Below, in pieces: positions 12-14,572 of a stretch of 33,825 bases of DNA. The first letter of the stretch is position 1. Each line of letters opens with the position of its first letter. Source of the stretch: a virus (Duplodnaviria > Heunggongvirae > Uroviricota > Caudoviricetes); IMG/VR virus record IMGVR_UViG_3300045988_128742, one strand, 5' to 3'. Position numbers and translations under genes: made by a program. The notes beneath the pieces were generated by a model. It made no database searches and was not told the origin of the DNA. It worked only from the letters and a program-made list of their open reading frames with translations.

Positions 12-87
12 GCCGATATAGCTCAGTTGGTAGAGCAGCGCATTCGTAATGCGAAGGTCGTAGGTTCGACTCCTATTATCGGCACCA
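12..87 (+). tRNA. thrW: tRNA-Thr, anticodon CGT (reads ACG)
   Basis: 76-nt cloverleaf read by eye: acceptor stem GCCGATA/TATCGGC, D-arm GCTCAGTTGGTAGAGC, anticodon stem GCGCA/TGCGA with loop TTCGTAA, T-arm GGTTCGACTCC, discriminator A and encoded CCA. Confidence 0.9.
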
Positions 88-101
88 TTAAAATCAATAA
101 G

Positions 102-1265
102 TTACACATCATTAGTACCTTCCTTATTTTTTGACTGGGACAAATTTGGGACCGATGGGTTCAGGATCGAGTCTATTTGCCGTGCGTGTTCGGTAAGGTG
201 ATTAGGTGCAAGGTGAGCATATCGACGAACCATTTCGATAGACTCCCAGCCTCCCATTTCCTGTAACACTGACAACGGGACTCCGGCTTGAACCAGCCAA
301 CTTGCCCAGGTGTGTCTCAAGTCGTGAAATCTGAAATCATCAATACCTGCTCGTCTCAGCGCCGCTTTCCAGGCTGTGTTTGCGTCATACCGCATCTTCC
401 TGACCGTTGGCGCTTTCGTTCCGTCTGGTTTGGTACAGCTTTCCTTGTACACAAATACCCAACGGTGATGATTCCCGATTTGTTTTTTCAATACGCGACA
501 TGCAGTATCATTCAGCGCAACGCCAATTGCGCGGTTTGATTTACTCTCTTCCGGGTTTATCCATGCCACCCGGCGCTGCATATCTATTTGTTGCCATTCA
601 AGGTTGATGATGTTCGAGCGTCTTAAGCCTGTTGCCAGTGCAAATTCAACAACAGACTTTAATGGCTCCGGACATTCATCAATCAGCCTTTGTGCTTCAT
701 GGGGCTCCAGCCAGCGGATCCGTTTATTCTTTGGTTGAGGCACTTTAATAATTGGTGCCTTATCCAGCATTTTCCATTCACGCTCTGCGGCTCTTAGTAG
801 GGCCTTTATAAATGAAAGATGCGTAGCCTTCGTTGCAACGGACGCTGGTTTTGGCGTGTATTCTGGAACAGGTTTCCCTTTTTTTCTGCATGCTTCTGCC
901 CTGAGTTTCCAGTTTTCCTCATGACGCCGGTTCGTCATTTTCTGCATTGCTGAATAAATTTTTGATTCAGTAATGTCTCTTAGTTGCATTCCTGCGAAAT
1001 GTTGAAGCCAGAATCCGATCCGGCTTTTGTCATCGTCCAGTGATTTTTTATGTGCTTTCTCTTCAAGCCACCTGACACACGCTTCCTCGAACGTTATATC
1101 AGGTATTTCACCAAGTTTGCTGACCCGCCATGCTTCAGCCTTTAGCTTGTCATGGAGTTCTGTCGCCTGCCTTTTGTCCTTTGTTCCAAGAGACTGTTTA
1201 AATCTTTTACCGTTCGGCAATGTGAAACTGGCGTACCATATTTCACCTCTGCGGAAGAGTGACAT
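102..1265 (-). CDS. int: Tyrosine site-specific integrase, P22-type
   Basis: 387-aa ORF ending 15 bp from the tRNA 3' end. C-terminal catalytic motifs HDLRHTWAS and VRRYAHL; N-terminus [14 protein letters not shown] matches the P22 Int family as I recall it. ATG at 1265 with GAGGAAAG Shine-Dalgarno (SD) upstream. Confidence 0.95.
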
Positions 1266-3831: not shown

Positions 3832-4506
3832 TTAGGCTTTGATTTTGTATCTTCTTGGTTTTCCTGAGAAAATCACTGTACCAATTATAGAGCAATTACC
3901 GTTGATCTTAATGTAAGGCTCAGGCCAGTTTGGGTTTAACGCTTTGAGATAACGCTGTGTCCCATCTTCTATCAACCTTTTGAAGGTGGTTTCGCCTGTA
4001 TCGTGCATCAATGCAATAACGTCGTCACCGTGGCAGGCAGGTACTTCAGGATCGACAAAAATCATGTCTCCCGGGCGGTACTCATCAATCATTGAATCAC
4101 CTATCACCCGCAAGATATAAGTCATTTCCCCACAGGGTACAGGGCAGGGATACGTTTCTGCTGTGCTCAAATCAACCTCAGAATATCCAACTTCTTTCCA
4201 TGCTCCGGCCTGTACCCATGATATGACAGGGACTAATGTGATTTGTTTATTAGTGATTGAAACATCAGGTTTTTTTGTGATGTTCGTTGTCTGGTGTTCT
4301 TGATCGAGCCATCCGACAGGCAGGTCGAAACATTTTTCGATGTGTCGTGCCATGCTGTCACCGATATTTTTAGTAGCACCATCTCCCATAAACCTGCTGG
4401 TCTGGGTTGGCTCGCGATCAATCATAGTGGCAAAGGAAGAATTCCCGCCAACACCATCTCTCAGTTTTCTGGCGTTAGACCGCCGGATGTCATGGATTGT
4501 TTTCAT
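3832..4506 (-). CDS. cI: CI-type prophage repressor (N-terminal HTH, C-terminal S24 LexA-like autopeptidase domain)
   Basis: 224 aa; C-terminal domain has the Ser (GDSM) and Lys (TFKRL) dyad context typical of LexA/CI autocleavage; divergent from cro across an operator-rich intergenic region. No SD upstream of the ATG. Confidence 0.85.
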   Translation of the reverse strand: MKTIHDIRRSNARKLRDGVGGNSSFATMIDREPTQTSRFMGDGATKNIGDSMARHIEKCFDLPVGWLDQEHQTTNITKKPDVSITNKQITLVPVISWVQAGAWKEVGYSEVDLSTAETYPCPVPCGEMTYILRVIGDSMIDEYRPGDMIFVDPEVPACHGDDVIALMHDTGETTFKRLIEDGTQRYLKALNPNWPEPYIKINGNCSIIGTVIFSGKPRRYKIKA

Positions 4507-4596
4507 AACGAAATTAAAACCCTTGTACCGTTAAGGTACAAGTATCTTGAAGGTTCATTTCAATCATGTAATATGTACACCGGAGGTACATATTGT
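4507..4596. promoter_or_regulatory. OR-like region with divergent PR and PRM promoters and palindromic operators
   Basis: 21-bp perfect palindrome CTTGTACCGTTAAGGTACAAG (4522-4542); second site TGTACACCGGAGGTACA (4574-4590). Plus-strand PR: -35 TTGAAG (4547-4552), 16-bp spacer, -10 TAATAT (4569-4574). Minus-strand PRM candidate: -35 TTGTAC (within operator), 17 bp, -10 TTTAAT (4518-4513), 6 nt before the cI ATG. Confidence 0.6.
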
Positions 4597-6680: not shown

Positions 6681-7169
6681 ATGAGTCTTTTGAATGAAGT
6701 TCAGAAATTCATTGAAGCCCATCCGGGGTGTACTTCCGGAGACATTGCGGATGCTTTTGCAGGTTACTCACGGCAGCGCGTTCTGCAGTCAGCAAGCAAG
6801 TTACGTCAGAGTGGGCGTGTGGCTCACCGTTGTGAAGGAGATACACGCAGACATTTCTCGCGCCTGACTGAGAGAGCGCAGGAGCCGGAACCACAACCAG
6901 TTCGTGAAACCAGACCTGTGCGCAAGTTCTATGTCGGCACTAACGACCCCCGGGTGATTTTGTGCCTGACCCGCCAGGCTGAAGAACTGGAGTCGAGGGG
7001 CTTATACCGTCGTGCTGCAACGGTGTGGATGGCGGCATTCCGTGAAAGCCACTCCCAGCCAGAACGAAACAATTTTCTGGCGCGTCGTGAACGGTGTTTA
7101 CGGAAAAGCAGTAAGCGGGCTGCATCAGGTGAAGAGTGGTATCTCTCAGGGAATTACGTGGGGGCTTAA
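6681..7169 (+). CDS. Putative regulator with PerC-like C-terminal motif
   Basis: Track ORF starts at GTG 6675; ATG at 6681 preferred. C-terminal segment LESRGLYRRAATVWMAAF...ERNNFLARRERCL resembles the PerC/Pch family as recalled; N-terminal half looks winged-helix-like. Confidence 0.45.
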   Translation: MSLLNEVQKFIEAHPGCTSGDIADAFAGYSRQRVLQSASKLRQSGRVAHRCEGDTRRHFSRLTERAQEPEPQPVRETRPVRKFYVGTNDPRVILCLTRQAEELESRGLYRRAATVWMAAFRESHSQPERNNFLARRERCLRKSSKRAASGEEWYLSGNYVGA

Positions 7170-7822
7170 TGAGTAATAAATATTGCCAGGCGCTGGCGGA
7201 ACTGCGGAACAAACCAGCCCATGAACTGAAGGAAGTGGGCGATCAGTGGCGCACGCCGGACAACATTTTCTGGGGAATTAACACCCTGTTTGGCCCGTTT
7301 GTTCTGGATCTGTTCACTGACGGTGATAACGCCAAATGTGCTGCGTATTACACGGCGGAAGACAACGCGCTGGCGCATGACTGGTCAGAACGCCTTGCGG
7401 AGCTTAAAGGTGCTGCCTTTGGTAATCCCCCATACAGCCGCGCCAGTCAGCATGAGGGGCAATACATCACCGGCATGCGTTACATCATGAAGCATGCCAG
7501 TGCCATGCGTGATAAAGGCGGGCGCTATGTTTTCCTGATCAAAGCTGCCACCAGCGAAGTGTGGTGGCCGGAAGATGCAGATCATATTGCTTTTATTCGC
7601 GGGCGTATTGGTTTTGAACTGCCTGCCTGGTTTATCCCGAAGGATGAGAAGCAGGTGCCGACAGGCGCTTTCTTCGCTGGTGCTATTGCTGTTTTCGACA
7701 AGACCTGGAAGGGACCGGCAATCAGCTACATCGGGCGCGATGAACTTGAGGCATGTGGTGAGGCCTTTCTGGCGCAGGTTCGCCAGCAGGCAGAAAAACT
7801 GGTCAGGGAGATGGCGGCATGA
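7169..7822 (+). CDS. Phage N6-adenine DNA methyltransferase (Dam-like orphan MTase)
   Basis: Contains the NPPY catalytic motif (AAFGNPPYSR). ATG at 7169 overlaps the upstream stop as TAATG; the track ORF begins at an upstream GTG (7136). Confidence 0.8.
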   Translation: MSNKYCQALAELRNKPAHELKEVGDQWRTPDNIFWGINTLFGPFVLDLFTDGDNAKCAAYYTAEDNALAHDWSERLAELKGAAFGNPPYSRASQHEGQYITGMRYIMKHASAMRDKGGRYVFLIKAATSEVWWPEDADHIAFIRGRIGFELPAWFIPKDEKQVPTGAFFAGAIAVFDKTWKGPAISYIGRDELEACGEAFLAQVRQQAEKLVREMAA

Positions 7823-8145
7823 CGACGTTAACTCAATGCCAGCAGCAGGTGCTGGATATGCTGATTTCTTATCAGAAAGAACGTGGCTTCCCGCCAACCA
7901 ATCAGGAGGTGGCAACCATGCTGGGATACCGTTCAGTGAATGCAGCGGTGGAGCATCTTCGCGCACTGGAGAAAAAAGGCGTCATCACGATAAAGCGTGG
8001 CGTGGCCCGGGGCATCACGCTTCATACCGCGGTGAAGGACGACGACAGCGAGGCGGTCGGGATTATCCGCGCACTGCTTGCCGGTGAGGCAAACGCCAGG
8101 CTGCGTGCAGCCCACTGGTTACATGAGAGGGGCCTGAAAGTATGA
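7819..8145 (+). CDS. LexA N-terminal DNA-binding-domain-only protein (no S24 peptidase domain)
   Basis: 108 aa. Residues 1-70 align convincingly by eye with the E. coli LexA winged-helix domain (QQQVLDMLISYQKERGFPPTNQEVATMLGYRSVNAAVEHLRALEKKGVI vs LexA [50 protein letters not shown]); the C-terminus has no Ser/Lys dyad. ATGA overlap with the upstream gene. Confidence 0.75.
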   Translation: MTTLTQCQQQVLDMLISYQKERGFPPTNQEVATMLGYRSVNAAVEHLRALEKKGVITIKRGVARGITLHTAVKDDDSEAVGIIRALLAGEANARLRAAHWLHERGLKV

Positions 8146-8531
8146 AGCTAATACTGCCTTTTCCGCCCAGCGTGAACACGTACTGGCGACACCCCAACAA
8201 AGGGGCGCTTGCAGGTAAGAGCCTGATAAGCGCGGCGGGGCGAAAATTCCAGAGCGCAGCGTGTGCAGCCATCATTGAGCAGTTACGTCGTTTGCCGAAA
8301 CCAACGTCGGCACCAGCTTCAGTGGAGATCGTGTTGTTTCCTCCGGATAACCGGCTTCGCGATCTGGACAACTATAACAAGGCGCTGTTTGACGCCCTGA
8401 CCCACGCGGGTGTGTGGGTGGACGACAGTCAGGTGAAAAGAATGCTGGTGGAGTGGGGACCGGTTATCCCGGAAGGGAAGGTCGAGATCACTATCAGTAA
8501 GTACGAGAAAACGGCGGGTGCAGCCGTCTGA
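8142..8531 (+). CDS. rusA: RusA-family Holliday junction resolvase
   Basis: 129 aa; conserved core RLRDLDNYNKALFDALTHAGVWVDDSQV matches the RusA catalytic-Asp region from memory. Confidence 0.8.
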   Translation: MKLILPFPPSVNTYWRHPNKGALAGKSLISAAGRKFQSAACAAIIEQLRRLPKPTSAPASVEIVLFPPDNRLRDLDNYNKALFDALTHAGVWVDDSQVKRMLVEWGPVIPEGKVEITISKYEKTAGAAV

Positions 8532-8550
8532 TTAAGAGGAGAAACGAAGT

Positions 8551-9360
8551 ATGAATAATCTGATGGTCATTGATGGTATTGAAGTTCGTCGTGATGCTTA
8601 TGGGCGTTACAGCCTGAACGATCTGCATCGCGCAGCAGTAGCATCTGGTGCAAATGCCAGAACCAAGGAGCCAGGAAAGTTTCTTTCCAGCCAACAAACT
8701 GTTGAGCTTGTTCATGAATTAACCAACACCCAGAATTTGGGTGTTGACCCGGTGAGTGTGATTCATGGGGGAAATGAACGGGGAACGTATGTCTGTAAGG
8801 AACTGGTGTATGCCTATGCAATGTGGATCAGCCCGTCATTCCATCTGAAGGTGATCCGTACTTTCGATATGGTAACCAGCGCGCCGGAAAAGTTATCCGG
8901 ACAGGCTGCTGACAAGATGCAGGCTGGCGTGATCCTGCTGGACTTTATGCGCCGGGAGTTAAATCTGTCTAACTCTTCAGTGCTTGGTGCCTGTCAGAAA
9001 CTCCAGGAGGCTGTTGGCTTACCGAATCTGGCACCGCGCTATGCCATTGATGCTCCTGCTGACGCGCCTGATGGCTCAAGCCGCCCCACGCTGTCACTGA
9101 GTGCACTGCTGAAGCAGTATGGTATTCGCCTGACAGCTAATCAGGCATATCACCAGATGGCGAAGCTGGGGATCGTTGAACAACGCGAACGATACAGCCG
9201 TACCGCGATTAACAACATCAAAAAATTCTGGTCGCTGACGGCGAAAGGCTGCATGTTCGGCAAGAACATCACCAGTCCTGCAAATCCGCGCGAGACGCAG
9301 CCGCATTTCTTCGAATCCCGATTCCCTGAGCTGTTAAAGCTGCTCGATACCGTTCATTGA
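8551..9360 (+). CDS. KilA-N domain protein
   Basis: 269 aa; N-terminal segment IDGIEVRRDAYGRYSLNDLHRAA resembles the KilA-N DNA-binding domain; strong SD (AAGAGGAGAAA) upstream. Confidence 0.6.
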   Translation: MNNLMVIDGIEVRRDAYGRYSLNDLHRAAVASGANARTKEPGKFLSSQQTVELVHELTNTQNLGVDPVSVIHGGNERGTYVCKELVYAYAMWISPSFHLKVIRTFDMVTSAPEKLSGQAADKMQAGVILLDFMRRELNLSNSSVLGACQKLQEAVGLPNLAPRYAIDAPADAPDGSSRPTLSLSALLKQYGIRLTANQAYHQMAKLGIVEQRERYSRTAINNIKKFWSLTAKGCMFGKNITSPANPRETQPHFFESRFPELLKLLDTVH

Positions 9361-10759: not shown

Positions 10760-10783
10760 AGCCCGATTACTCGGGCTTTTGTT
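10760..10783 (+). terminator. Intrinsic terminator just downstream of Q
   Basis: Stem AGCCCG / CGGGCT with 6-nt loop followed by TTTGTT on the plus strand; the opposite-strand gene's stop codon lies in the loop. Confidence 0.6.
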
Positions 10784-11436
10784 CCACATCTCGAACATAG
10801 AGAATTACTGCTGACTTAATGTCACCATCGACGTGTTTTGCGTTAATGCTCAAATGTACAGGCTTTCTTTCCCACTCAGCTCGCTGCAATGCTTCTTTGT
10901 TTCCGGATTCATCAAGGAAAACATCCTGAACTACGCAGGTTAGACGTTGGTCGGTATCTACGCGTCGGACCTTAACTTTGAAACTCTCTGGGTCAGTATT
11001 ATTGACTTCTTCAATTCGGTAAATACCATCAATCCTCATTTCTGATGAACGTCTACGAGCATTCGTAACCAACTCTTTCGCCATTTCAGAATCAATAGTA
11101 ACGCCATCAATTTGAGCGTTATCTGAACGCACAAAGGATTTGACCATTTGGGTTTTAGCGTCATACGACATACGGTCCATGTTATCGAGAAGTGGTTTTT
11201 CCGCAATCATTTCTGAAATAACCCGCAGGCGTTTAGTTTCTTGCTCGCTCATGATCTGCATAGTCCGGAGATGTTCTTTCTCTCCATCCTTAGCAATTTC
11301 TGCAAGGCGAATATCTTTACGGTTGTCCAAGAACCGTTTAAATACTGTTACTCCGCCCCAGATGACTGCTGCGCCGAGAACAGTAAACATGATCTCAGTT
11401 GCGTTCATTTTACCAACAAGTTCCTGTGTGAGTTTG

Positions 11437-11445: not shown

Positions 11446-12496
11446 GGCGTTGTTGCTCAAATCAGGGAACTATCCCGCAGTTTGGTGATCTGATCTCTTA
11501 GGTTCACCACCGGGAGCGCCAGATGGGCAAGTCCAAGCACAAGATCAGCAACTGGAAACAGTACAACCAAGCCTTGGTGCAACGTGGTTCGTTGACCGTC
11601 TGGATGGATGAGCAAGCCATCCAGCAGTGGCATTGCCAGACCCATCATGGCCGCCGAGGGCGAGGCTTCCATTACAGCGACTCCGCCATTGAAACCGCGC
11701 TGATGCTCAAGGCGGTATTCAAGCTACCGCTGCGTGCCTTGGAAGGCTTCATCAACTCGCTGTTCCAGCTGATGAATGTGCCCTTACAGTCGCCGGACTA
11801 CAGCTGTATCAGCAAGCGCGCCAAGACGGTCGAAATCAAGTACCGCCTACCGAGCCATGGCCCAGTAGCTCACCTGGTCATCGATGCCACCGGACTCAAG
11901 GTCTATGGCGAGGGCGAATGGAAAATTCGCAAGCACGGCAAGGAGAAACGCCGCGTCTGGCGCAAGCTTCACCTGGCCGTAGATGCGGCGACCCATGCCA
12001 TCGTCGCAGCCGAAGTCAGCCTGGAAACGGTGGGCGATAACGAGGTGCTGCCCACGCTGCTCAACCCCTTGCGCCGCAAGATAGAACAAGTCAGCGCCGA
12101 TGGTGCCTATGACACCAAAGCCTGTTATGCCCTACTACAAAAGAAGGGCGCCAAGGCCACCATACCGCCGAGAAAAAATGCGGCATTCTGGAAGACAGGC
12201 CATCCACGCAACGAGGCGGTTGCCGCGCTCAAGGCAGGAGAGCTGGAGCAATGGAAAAAGGACTCTGGCTATCATCAGCGCTCGATAGCTGAGACCGCCA
12301 TGTATCGCTTCAAGCAGCTCATCGGTCCGAAACTGAGTCTGCGGAGCTACAACGCCCAGGTGGGTGAGATCCTGGCTGGGGTAAAAGTCATGAACAAGGT
12401 CATAGGGCTTGGTATGCCCATTCGGCAGGCCGTCAACTAAGCCCGCCCGGCGGGTTGGGGAGCGAGTATCCGACTTTGGATTTGATCAACAAGGCC
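11446..12496 (+). mobile_element. IS903-group (IS5 family) insertion sequence, 1051 bp
   Basis: 18-bp terminal inverted repeats GGCGTTGTTGCTCAAATC (11446-11463) and GGCCTTGTTGATCAAATC (reverse complement of 12479-12496) flank one transposase gene, with a perfect 9-bp target duplication. Confidence 0.9.
11523..12440 (+). CDS. IS903-family transposase
   Basis: 305 aa; N-terminus MGKSKHKISNWKQYNQALVQRGSLT and core GEGEWK.RKHGKE.RR.WRKLHLAVD match IS903/IS102 transposase from memory. Confidence 0.9.
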   Translation: MGKSKHKISNWKQYNQALVQRGSLTVWMDEQAIQQWHCQTHHGRRGRGFHYSDSAIETALMLKAVFKLPLRALEGFINSLFQLMNVPLQSPDYSCISKRAKTVEIKYRLPSHGPVAHLVIDATGLKVYGEGEWKIRKHGKEKRRVWRKLHLAVDAATHAIVAAEVSLETVGDNEVLPTLLNPLRRKIEQVSADGAYDTKACYALLQKKGAKATIPPRKNAAFWKTGHPRNEAVAALKAGELEQWKKDSGYHQRSIAETAMYRFKQLIGPKLSLRSYNAQVGEILAGVKVMNKVIGLGMPIRQAVN

Positions 12497-13519: not shown

Positions 13520-14572
13520 ATGAAAAATACTGTAAAAATAAACAGTGTTGATTTAATCAACGCTGATTGCCTGCATTTTATTCAGTCCCTGCCTGATGAT
13601 TCCATTGACCTGATTGTTACCGATCCGCCTTACTTCAAGGTGAAACCTAACGGTTGGGACAATCAGTGGAAAGGGGACGAAGATTACCTTAAGTGGCTGG
13701 ACCACTGTCTGGCCCAGTTCTGGCGGGTGTTAAAACCTGCCGGAAGCCTTTACCTGTTCTGTGGACATCGCCTGGCATCTGATATTGAGATCATGATGCG
13801 TGAACGTTTCAACGTGCTTAACCATATCATCTGGGCGAAGCCGTCCGGACGTTGGAATGGGTGTAATAAAGAAAGTCTGCGCGCATATTTTCCTGCCACA
13901 GAGCGCGTTCTGTTTGCTGAACATTACCAGGGGCCATATCGCGGCAAAAGTGACGGCTATGCGGCAAAAGAAAGGGAACTCAAACAGCACATAATGGCAC
14001 CGCTGATATCGTATTTCAGGGATGCTCGTGCCGAACTGGGTATAACGGCAAAACAAATTGCCGAAGCCACAGGTAAGAAAAATATGGTTTCCCACTGGTT
14101 TGGTGCCAGTCAGTGGCAGTTGCCGAATGAGGCTGACTATCGGAAGTTACAGGCACTGTTTTCCCGTATAGCGGCAGAGAAGTTTCAGGAACAACAACTG
14201 GAACAACCACACCACCAGCTGGTGGCATCTTATGATTCACTGAATCGCAAATATTCTGAATTGCTGGATGAGTTTAAATCTCTCCGGCGCTATTTCTCCG
14301 TATCAGTCTCCGTGCCTTATACCGATGTCTGGACGCATAAACCCGTTCAGTTCTACCCGGGTAAACATCCGTGCGAGAAACCGGCGGATATGCTCCGGCA
14401 AATAATCAATGCCAGTAGTCGACCTGGTGATCTGGTTGCTGATTTCTTTATGGGATCCGGTTCCACAATAAAAGCAGCAATGGCGCTGGGGCGTCGGGCG
14501 TTAGGTGTTGAACTTGAGTCAGAGCGGTTTAATCAGACGGTGAAAGAGGTAAGTGAACTGGTGGGGAAATAA
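13520..14572 (+). CDS. Beta-class DNA methyltransferase (N6-adenine or N4-cytosine), orphan
   Basis: 350 aa; catalytic DPPY motif near the N-terminus (LIVTDPPYF) and AdoMet-binding FxGxG motif near the C-terminus (DFFMGSGST), i.e. beta-class motif order. No restriction endonuclease candidate adjacent. Confidence 0.8.
   Translation: MKNTVKINSVDLINADCLHFIQSLPDDSIDLIVTDPPYFKVKPNGWDNQWKGDEDYLKWLDHCLAQFWRVLKPAGSLYLFCGHRLASDIEIMMRERFNVLNHIIWAKPSGRWNGCNKESLRAYFPATERVLFAEHYQGPYRGKSDGYAAKERELKQHIMAPLISYFRDARAELGITAKQIAEATGKKNMVSHWFGASQWQLPNEADYRKLQALFSRIAAEKFQEQQLEQPHHQLVASYDSLNRKYSELLDEFKSLRRYFSVSVSVPYTDVWTHKPVQFYPGKHPCEKPADMLRQIINASSRPGDLVADFFMGSGSTIKAAMALGRRALGVELESERFNQTVKEVSELVGK

Follow-up and report, generated by a model that had tools for sequence, protein, structure and literature searches.

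A non-cleavable LexA-like protein encoded by an optional cassette in the early operon of an SfV-type prophage, and its possible action on SOS-box-like operators

The viral record IMGVR_UViG_3300045988_128742, a stretch of 33,825 nucleotides (hereafter the window), is a lambdoid prophage of the SfV type, inserted next to tRNA-Thr, and among its early genes is one for a 108-residue LexA-like protein. Our data show that this LexA-like gene is an intact accessory gene under purifying selection, and that it is a precise 324-bp presence/absence cassette which is dispensable. We tentatively favour the view that its product is a non-cleavable LexA-type regulator, dimerised through its tail, which would occupy SOS-box-like operators in lytic growth and thereby re-close LexA-controlled promoters. 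This view is supported by the LexA fold, the lack of an S24 domain, the retention of four of the five DNA contacts of LexA and of R64/G65, and the conserved tail, as well as by the early-operon timing and the SOS wiring of relatives (75 of 80 loci of a distant subfamily). The gene, its parts and its immediate neighbours are the following.

7819-8145, plus strand: complete gene of the LexA-like protein, which has the LexA DNA-binding domain only; ATG to TGA, stop codon included, 108 aa (list of open reading frames, ORFs, and sequence)
7819-8022, plus strand: LexA-type winged helix-turn-helix domain, residues 1-68 (PF01726, AlphaFold2 (AF2) model, Foldseek match to 3jso, ratio of non-synonymous to synonymous polymorphism (pN/pS) 0.03)
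7933-7974, plus strand: recognition helix region, residues 39-52 (SVNAAVEHLRALEK), from alignments to E. coli LexA
8041-8127, plus strand: conserved C-terminal two-helix tail (residues 75-87 and 93-103), a candidate dimerisation element (AF2, predicted local distance difference test (pLDDT) about 83)
8080-8085, plus strand: A88-G89, aligned with the A84-G85 cleavage site of LexA (HMMER and BLAST alignments reach LLAGE versus VAAGE)
7806-7810, plus strand: Shine-Dalgarno-like GGGAG, read from the sequence, 8 nt 5' of the ATG and within the 3' end of the Dam gene
7136-7822, plus strand: upstream gene of a phage Dam-type N6-adenine methyltransferase (Pfam PF05869, E=1.2e-45; an identical region is annotated by RefSeq in strain HH107)
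8142-8531, plus strand: downstream gene rusA, Holliday-junction resolvase (Pfam PF05866, E=1.1e-14)

A preliminary description of this DNA had related the N-terminal part of the protein to LexA and had noted that the chain stops without an S24 autopeptidase domain; both points are borne out. Pfam LexA_DNA_bind (PF01726) matches residues 1-65 over the whole profile (1-65/65; E=2.9e-19, 69 bits, cutoff 23.7), and the sequence matches in the PDB are all LexA structures (1lea, 1jhh, 3jso; E about 1e-15). The NCBIfam lexA equivalog TIGR00498 is matched at model positions 1-91 of 203 only, with a score of 70.7, below its cutoff of 110.95; Pfam finds no Peptidase_S24 match in the protein, whose chain ends at residue 108. 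When E. coli LexA was compared with the whole window by tblastn, only its residues 1-86 aligned, at 7819-8088, and no S24-like stretch appeared downstream or in another frame. An S24 remnant is absent 3' of the gene since rusA starts at its stop codon and fills the following DNA, so the frameshifted LexA or CI remnant that had been considered as the alternative is not there. With no catalytic domain in cis, the LexA-like protein cannot self-cleave.

The AF2 model (pLDDT 77) consists of a winged helix at residues 1-68 (H1 6-22, H2 28-35, H3 40-52, beta-wing 56-59 and 65-68), a disordered low-confidence linker at 71-75 and two helices at 75-87 and 93-103. Its best Foldseek match is chain B of the LexA-DNA complex (3jso_B; root mean square deviation 1.5 A over 68 columns, 50% identity). 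With E. coli LexA the protein shares the winged-helix domain, in which 43% of 90 aligned residues and about 50% of the 68 residues aligned by structure are identical, but it has neither the S24 protease/dimerisation domain nor the Ser119/Lys156 dyad, and its two-helix tail is unrelated. The settings differ as well: the LexA-like gene lies in a phage early operon, whereas the genuine lexA genes found in our scan of contigs have an autoregulated promoter with two boxes.

The tail matches no Pfam family, and its comparison with the LexA C-terminal domain by BLASTP gave chance matches of 6-8 residues only. At lower ranks of the Foldseek list the dimeric regulators MntR, DtxR, NsrR and CymR share the layout of a winged helix-turn-helix followed by C-terminal helices, and the conserved amphipathic tail is, on the model, the obvious candidate for homodimerisation. 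A different use of the protein, as a dominant-negative poison that draws host LexA into inactive heterodimers, had been suggested earlier. It could appeal to the homology of the N-terminal domains and to nothing further, while LexA dimerises through its C-terminal domain (the 'dimerization domain' of PMC3091678), which the LexA-like protein does not have and to which its tail bears no similarity; structurally unsupported, this idea is very improbable. Only slightly better is the chance that the protein is a decoy of the LexA linker and cleavage region, competing for RecA*-activated S24 sites or for ClpXP and so altering the turnover of LexA or CI instead of binding DNA. The LexA alignments do run through A88-G89, but the A-G pair varies among homologues (LLANEE, LLVGEE), AF2 places it in the turn of a helix-turn-helix hairpin and not in an extended strand as in the LexA cleavage region, and the strongest constraint falls on the DNA-binding domain. 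A88-G89 is probably not a cleavage site, being unconserved and within a predicted helical hairpin.

The gene is already catalogued and very common, under database names that are based on homology. Gene and product are each 100% identical to their RefSeq counterpart (WP_000210152.1, 'LexA family transcriptional regulator'), and the protein aligns over residues 1-108 with PHROG 362 ('transcriptional repressor'; profile 1-106/106, E=4.2e-59); this is the same protein as that of the window and nothing differs. Copies with at least 95% identity are present in 2233 of 5426 complete E. coli genomes (about 41%), up to four per genome, and in 50 phage records, including SfV (orf42), SfII, SfIV, mEp460, cdtI and Stx2a and Stx2c converting phages, where they are labelled 'LexA-like protein', 'LexA DNA binding domain protein' (mEp460) or 'repressor, lexA family' (Stx2a/Stx2c). 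The 45 distinct alleles obtained from 82 loci differ at 49 synonymous and 9 non-synonymous sites (pN/pS 0.06 overall; DNA-binding domain 0.03, tail 0.11). An exhaustive profile search returned full-length homologues of 40-49% identity, from sources named Cronobacter, Enterobacter, Cedecea, Klebsiella and Salmonella, that share both the DNA-binding domain and the two-helix tail (motif EA..hhR.Lh....AR.RA...L). That the gene is a decaying, functionless remnant of a captured lexA or cI, as its length of about half that of LexA might suggest, is effectively refuted by these selection and conservation data: synonymous sites prevail among the alleles, homologues of other genera keep the full-length architecture, the start and stop overlaps with the neighbours are intact, and there is no S24 remnant.

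The position of the gene is fixed. In all homologue contexts examined (including L002, L003, L007, L009, L010, L011 and L013) it lies just 5' of rusA, separated from it by at most one small or inserted ORF; rusA is followed by DUF968 and Q, usually preceded by a KilA-N or ANT gene, and a DNA methyltransferase gene is often found upstream. At the same time, the gene is absent from 9 of 78 IMG/VR loci that have a DUF968 neighbour of 98-99% identity. Comparison of one such locus (L378, 6742-6812) with the window (7780-7840 and 8105-8175) shows the Dam stop/ATGA joined straight to rusA, with the coupling preserved. As to the earlier suggestion that the protein may change how the prophage senses DNA damage, such polymorphism points to an accessory modulator and away from a core part of the switch, and a dispensable cassette fits a host-directed accessory role better than that of an essential phage switch.

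Two variant architectures were met among the related proteins. In Klebsiella phage Kp4866-6 (L007, 4287-4763) the slot before rusA is taken by a LexA DNA-binding domain fused to some 90 aa of unrelated C-terminal domain in place of the two-helix tail, a hint that the oligomerisation or effector part is exchanged as a module. Four other proteins (P0127, P0129, P0136, P0140; 141-222 aa) carry two tandem LexA DNA-binding domains per chain; each would be a protease-less pseudo-dimer made of one chain.

In the window, translation of the gene is coupled to that of Dam and RusA within the rightward early (nin-region) operon. The Dam stop (7820-7822; the RefSeq-equivalent Dam start is 7169) shares an ATGA overlap with the start of the LexA-like gene (gcATGAcg), and the rusA start at 8142 shares another with its stop (gtATGAag), RusA occupying the next 390 bases. 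Membership of the operon follows from the gene order, from these overlaps and from the fact that no promoter or terminator consensus was found adjoining the gene. We infer that it is a delayed-early member of the CI-controlled rightward operon, expressed after CI inactivation. If so, the protein would be made only once CI has been inactivated, after SOS induction or on infection; it would dimerise via its C-terminal helical hairpin and bind palindromes with CTGT-type half-sites, that is, SOS boxes or close variants. As RecA* would be unable to inactivate it, it could serve as a damage-insensitive stand-in for LexA, re-closing host SOS genes and the LexA boxes of the phage lineage while lytic development depletes host LexA.

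What DNA the protein recognises can be approached through its helix 3. In E. coli LexA this helix contacts DNA through Ser39, Asn41, Ala42, Glu44 and Glu45 (PMC3091678). The LexA-like protein reads S39-V-N41-A42-A-V44-E45 and keeps S39, N41, A42 and E45, and the R64-G65 pair of LexA is also conserved. The concept of a phage protein with only a LexA domain is already published: gp6 of the Bacillus tectivirus GIL01 is a truncated LexA homologue that binds GaCACAnnTGTGaC over the -35 of the late promoter P3 and activates P3 (PMC6182141). Like the LexA-like protein, gp6 is a small LexA DNA-binding domain of a temperate phage, has no protease and is encoded after replication genes; it differs in having 66 aa and no tail, GIL01 has no CI repressor, and activation of a late promoter was shown for gp6 only. 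BLASTP gave no alignment between the two proteins, which are 35% identical in a MAFFT alignment. The recognition helix of gp6 is SHKTAHRY, in which K38 is critical; the LexA-like protein, as LexA, has N41 there. A CTGT-type half-site for the LexA-like protein, and with it the occupancy of SOS boxes suggested earlier, is plausible from its sequence because the LexA contacts are kept, while gp6, with its other target, has another helix.

It should be noted, however, that gp6 also provides the model for a different explanation, which is possible and, in our estimate, nearly as likely as a LexA-type regulator of SOS-box-like operators: the LexA-like protein may be a phage-specific transcription factor with an operator of its own in the phage genome instead of SOS boxes, activating or repressing a phage promoter at the transition from early to late expression. 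The sole characterised truncated LexA homologue acts in this way, the LexA-like gene too follows replication genes and precedes Q, and there are departures from LexA at position 44 of the protein and at position 45 of its relatives. On the other hand, late transcription is here already served by the Q antiterminator. The precise absence of the gene from some near-identical relatives speaks against an essential regulator, and the recognition helix keeps LexA contacts that gp6 does not have. Nor did a de novo search of 60 mosaic loci for palindromes that accompany the gene yield a candidate operator; it gave only palindromes within conserved coding blocks, such as CCAGCA-N5-TGCTGG within the LexA-like gene itself.

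SOS boxes were sought with patterns and with a position weight matrix (PWM) derived from a set of 24 operators of E. coli LexA; its individual scores are approximate. As a positive control, it recovered the paired autoregulatory boxes 5' of genuine lexA genes (Vibrio, Photobacterium, Edwardsiella); a profile scan of contigs with the subfamily alignment, which returned mostly genuine lexA genes (Halomonas and others), was used for this control. There is one strong site in the window.

13528-13547, no strand assigned: LexA (SOS) box TACTGTAAAAATAAACAGTG, the sole strong one in the window (pattern and PWM scans, 22.3 bits)

Over 200 shuffles of the window the highest score was 19.4 bits, below the 22.3 of the box. 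The box lies behind a conserved hairpin (CCCACTGCTTTAGCGCAAAAGCAGAGTG) and spans codons 3-9 of the gene for the N6_N4 DNA methylase, which stands ahead of the holin gene at the head of the lysis/late region; the same box occurs in related loci (L001 15920, L006 9084, L007 9084, L009 7739). From its sequence it is a candidate target, certainly of host LexA and possibly of the LexA-like phage protein, and its place suggests direct control by host LexA, or a roadblock, at the entry of the late operon.

Boxes of at least 20 bits are frequent in the lineage: E. coli-type loci with the gene have 62 in 1.10 Mb (50 of 80 loci) and the distant subfamily has 91 in 0.78 Mb (74 of 80 loci), compared with a single one in 1.06 Mb (1 of 80 loci) of lambda-NinG-type controls, which lack the gene. 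Three places recur in the E. coli-type loci: the methylase start, a promoter between rusA and KilA-N (14 loci) and the inside of the cI ORF. At L100 8765-8784 and its counterparts (14 of 80 related loci) a terminator, a promoter and a LexA box (TACTGTATTTATGAACAGTG) of its own stand before the KilA-N gene; the corresponding gap of the window (8531-8551) is 20 bp with no box, and the KilA-N protein is antirepressor-like. The S24-type cI of some related prophages contains a strong LexA box, TACTGTTTTTA(C/T)ATACAGTA, within its reading frame (L100 3546-3565 and about 22 further related loci).

A distant subfamily of the LexA-like protein (P0132, P0133, P0138, P0147), which has an N-terminal extension, lies in operons with a LexA box. 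Upstream of the genes are a terminator and a sigma-70 promoter with which a strong LexA box overlaps. The first gene is dinI or, in its stead, an ORF resembling RecA_C; the second is a small ORF that starts with GTG (PHROG 1813, possibly an antirepressor); the LexA-like gene is third, and PHROG 1212 and, usually, RusA, DUF968 and Q come after it. The loci concerned are L009 4531-4580, L010 4533-4579, L013 4242-4277 and L015 490-532, as well as L017-L096. Among the 80 IMG/VR loci of this subfamily, the 75 with an SOS box 5' of the gene have PWM scores of 17-30 bits (most 25-30), and the box is mostly 440-700 bp upstream of the gene, in some cases 1.1-2.8 kb. In one locus (L013, 4310-4597) a 95-aa ORF with a Pfam RecA_C match stands right behind a double LexA box and 5' of the LexA-like gene; through it the phage may encode a fragment-like mimic of the C-terminal domain of RecA.

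Gifsy prophages carry a LexA-controlled dinI-antirepressor operon (PMC3121763), and its layout is the same: terminator, promoter with LexA box, dinI, GTG-start ORF, a gene X, resolvase and Q. In Gifsy-2, however, gene X (the irsA homologue STM1020) encodes a DUF1367 protein (E=4e-98). The identification of the distant subfamily as the homologue of Gifsy irsA, made from synteny, was withdrawn, as STM1020 shows no similarity to the subfamily; for this reason the published result of irsA deletion is not applicable to it. Unlike the distant subfamily and Gifsy, the copy of the LexA-like gene in our window is outside such a dinI operon.

Several observations weigh against a LexA-type regulator acting on SOS-box-like operators. 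The truncated homologue gp6 recognises a different palindrome and activates transcription (PMC6182141). The contact residue E44 of LexA is replaced by V in the LexA-like protein, and the distant subfamily often has L, T or S at position 45, so that LexA-like specificity cannot be extended to the whole family. The spacing of half-sites depends on the geometry of the dimer, and a dimer formed through the tail is itself a prediction from the model. In the window there is no SOS box near the gene, and a literature search found no functional study of the family (PHROG 362). Phage phiNP keeps the methylase box but does not have the gene, and box density in DUF968-type loci is 0.48 per 10 kb where the gene is present versus 0.35 in the nine loci without it. 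As the density is similar without the gene and phiNP has the box, enrichment of boxes is a property of the phage lineage and is not linked to the gene. The boxes are therefore primarily sites of host LexA, and the LexA-like protein, which may bind them too, is an optional addition in an SOS-wired lineage. A specific pairing of the methylase box with the gene was also considered, since 27 of 27 near-identical phage records that bear the box have the gene, and was rejected in view of phiNP and the box density.

The remaining features of the window describe the prophage in which the gene resides.

12-87, plus strand: tRNA-Thr, anticodon CGT, directly adjoining the integrase gene
102-1265, minus strand: integrase (gene order of the window)
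3832-4506, minus strand: CI repressor with S24 autopeptidase domain (Pfam Peptidase_S24, E=1.5e-26)
10767-11408, minus strand: unclassified ORF of 213 aa beside the transposase gene, no Pfam or PADLOC match
11523-12440, plus strand: DDE transposase gene, 305 aa, inserted between Q and the late region (Pfam DDE_Tnp_1_5 plus DDE_Tnp_1)

The tRNA-Thr is likely the attachment site of the prophage. Its CI appears to be of the RecA-cleavable type, as it had first been described: besides the Peptidase_S24 match, the translation shows the A-G site in VQAGAW, the serine motif GDSM and the lysine motif FKRL. Two palindromes read from the sequence of the cI-cro intergenic region (4520-4590), of the TTGTACC-N5-GGTACAA and ATGTAC-N9-GTACAT types, are presumably CI operators unrelated to LexA boxes. 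After cI come cro, a CII-like gene, DUF4222, an O-like replication protein, PerC, Dam and the LexA-like gene, then RusA, the KilA-N protein, DUF968 and the Q antiterminator (Pfam Phage_antitermQ, E=2e-52). Beyond Q lie a reverse-strand ORF, an IS transposase, the N6_N4 DNA methylase, the holin and the late genes; insertion of the transposase gene may uncouple Q from its late operon. A search with the PADLOC defence-system models gave only one weak, irrelevant match.

What our analysis adds to existing knowledge of the LexA-like gene is the conservation of its tail, the retention of LexA contacts, its fixed position before rusA, the cassette polymorphism and the setting of the sister subfamily in a dinI operon. 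None of these features would surprise a specialist, but together they make a simple hypothesis directly testable, and natural isogenic phages with and without the cassette make the test cheap. In its most far-reaching form, to which we assign a rather low likelihood, the hypothesis states that the cassette supplies an optional, RecA-insensitive LexA surrogate that re-closes SOS boxes after induction and shuts down the host SOS regulon together with prophage promoters, namely those of antirepressor, dinI, kilA-N and methylase genes of its own and of co-resident prophages. If this were true, a phage-encoded SOS off-switch would partly set phage-phage competition, the duration of SOS mutagenesis and the induction of toxin phages after antibiotics. 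In lysogens of Shiga-toxin phages, SOS-inducing antibiotics drive toxin production. If LexA-controlled promoters are indeed re-repressed by the LexA-like protein, many E. coli strains, including Shiga-toxin phage lysogens, would carry a phage-encoded brake on the SOS response, and the cross-talk of prophages via LexA-controlled antirepressors would have an extra layer.

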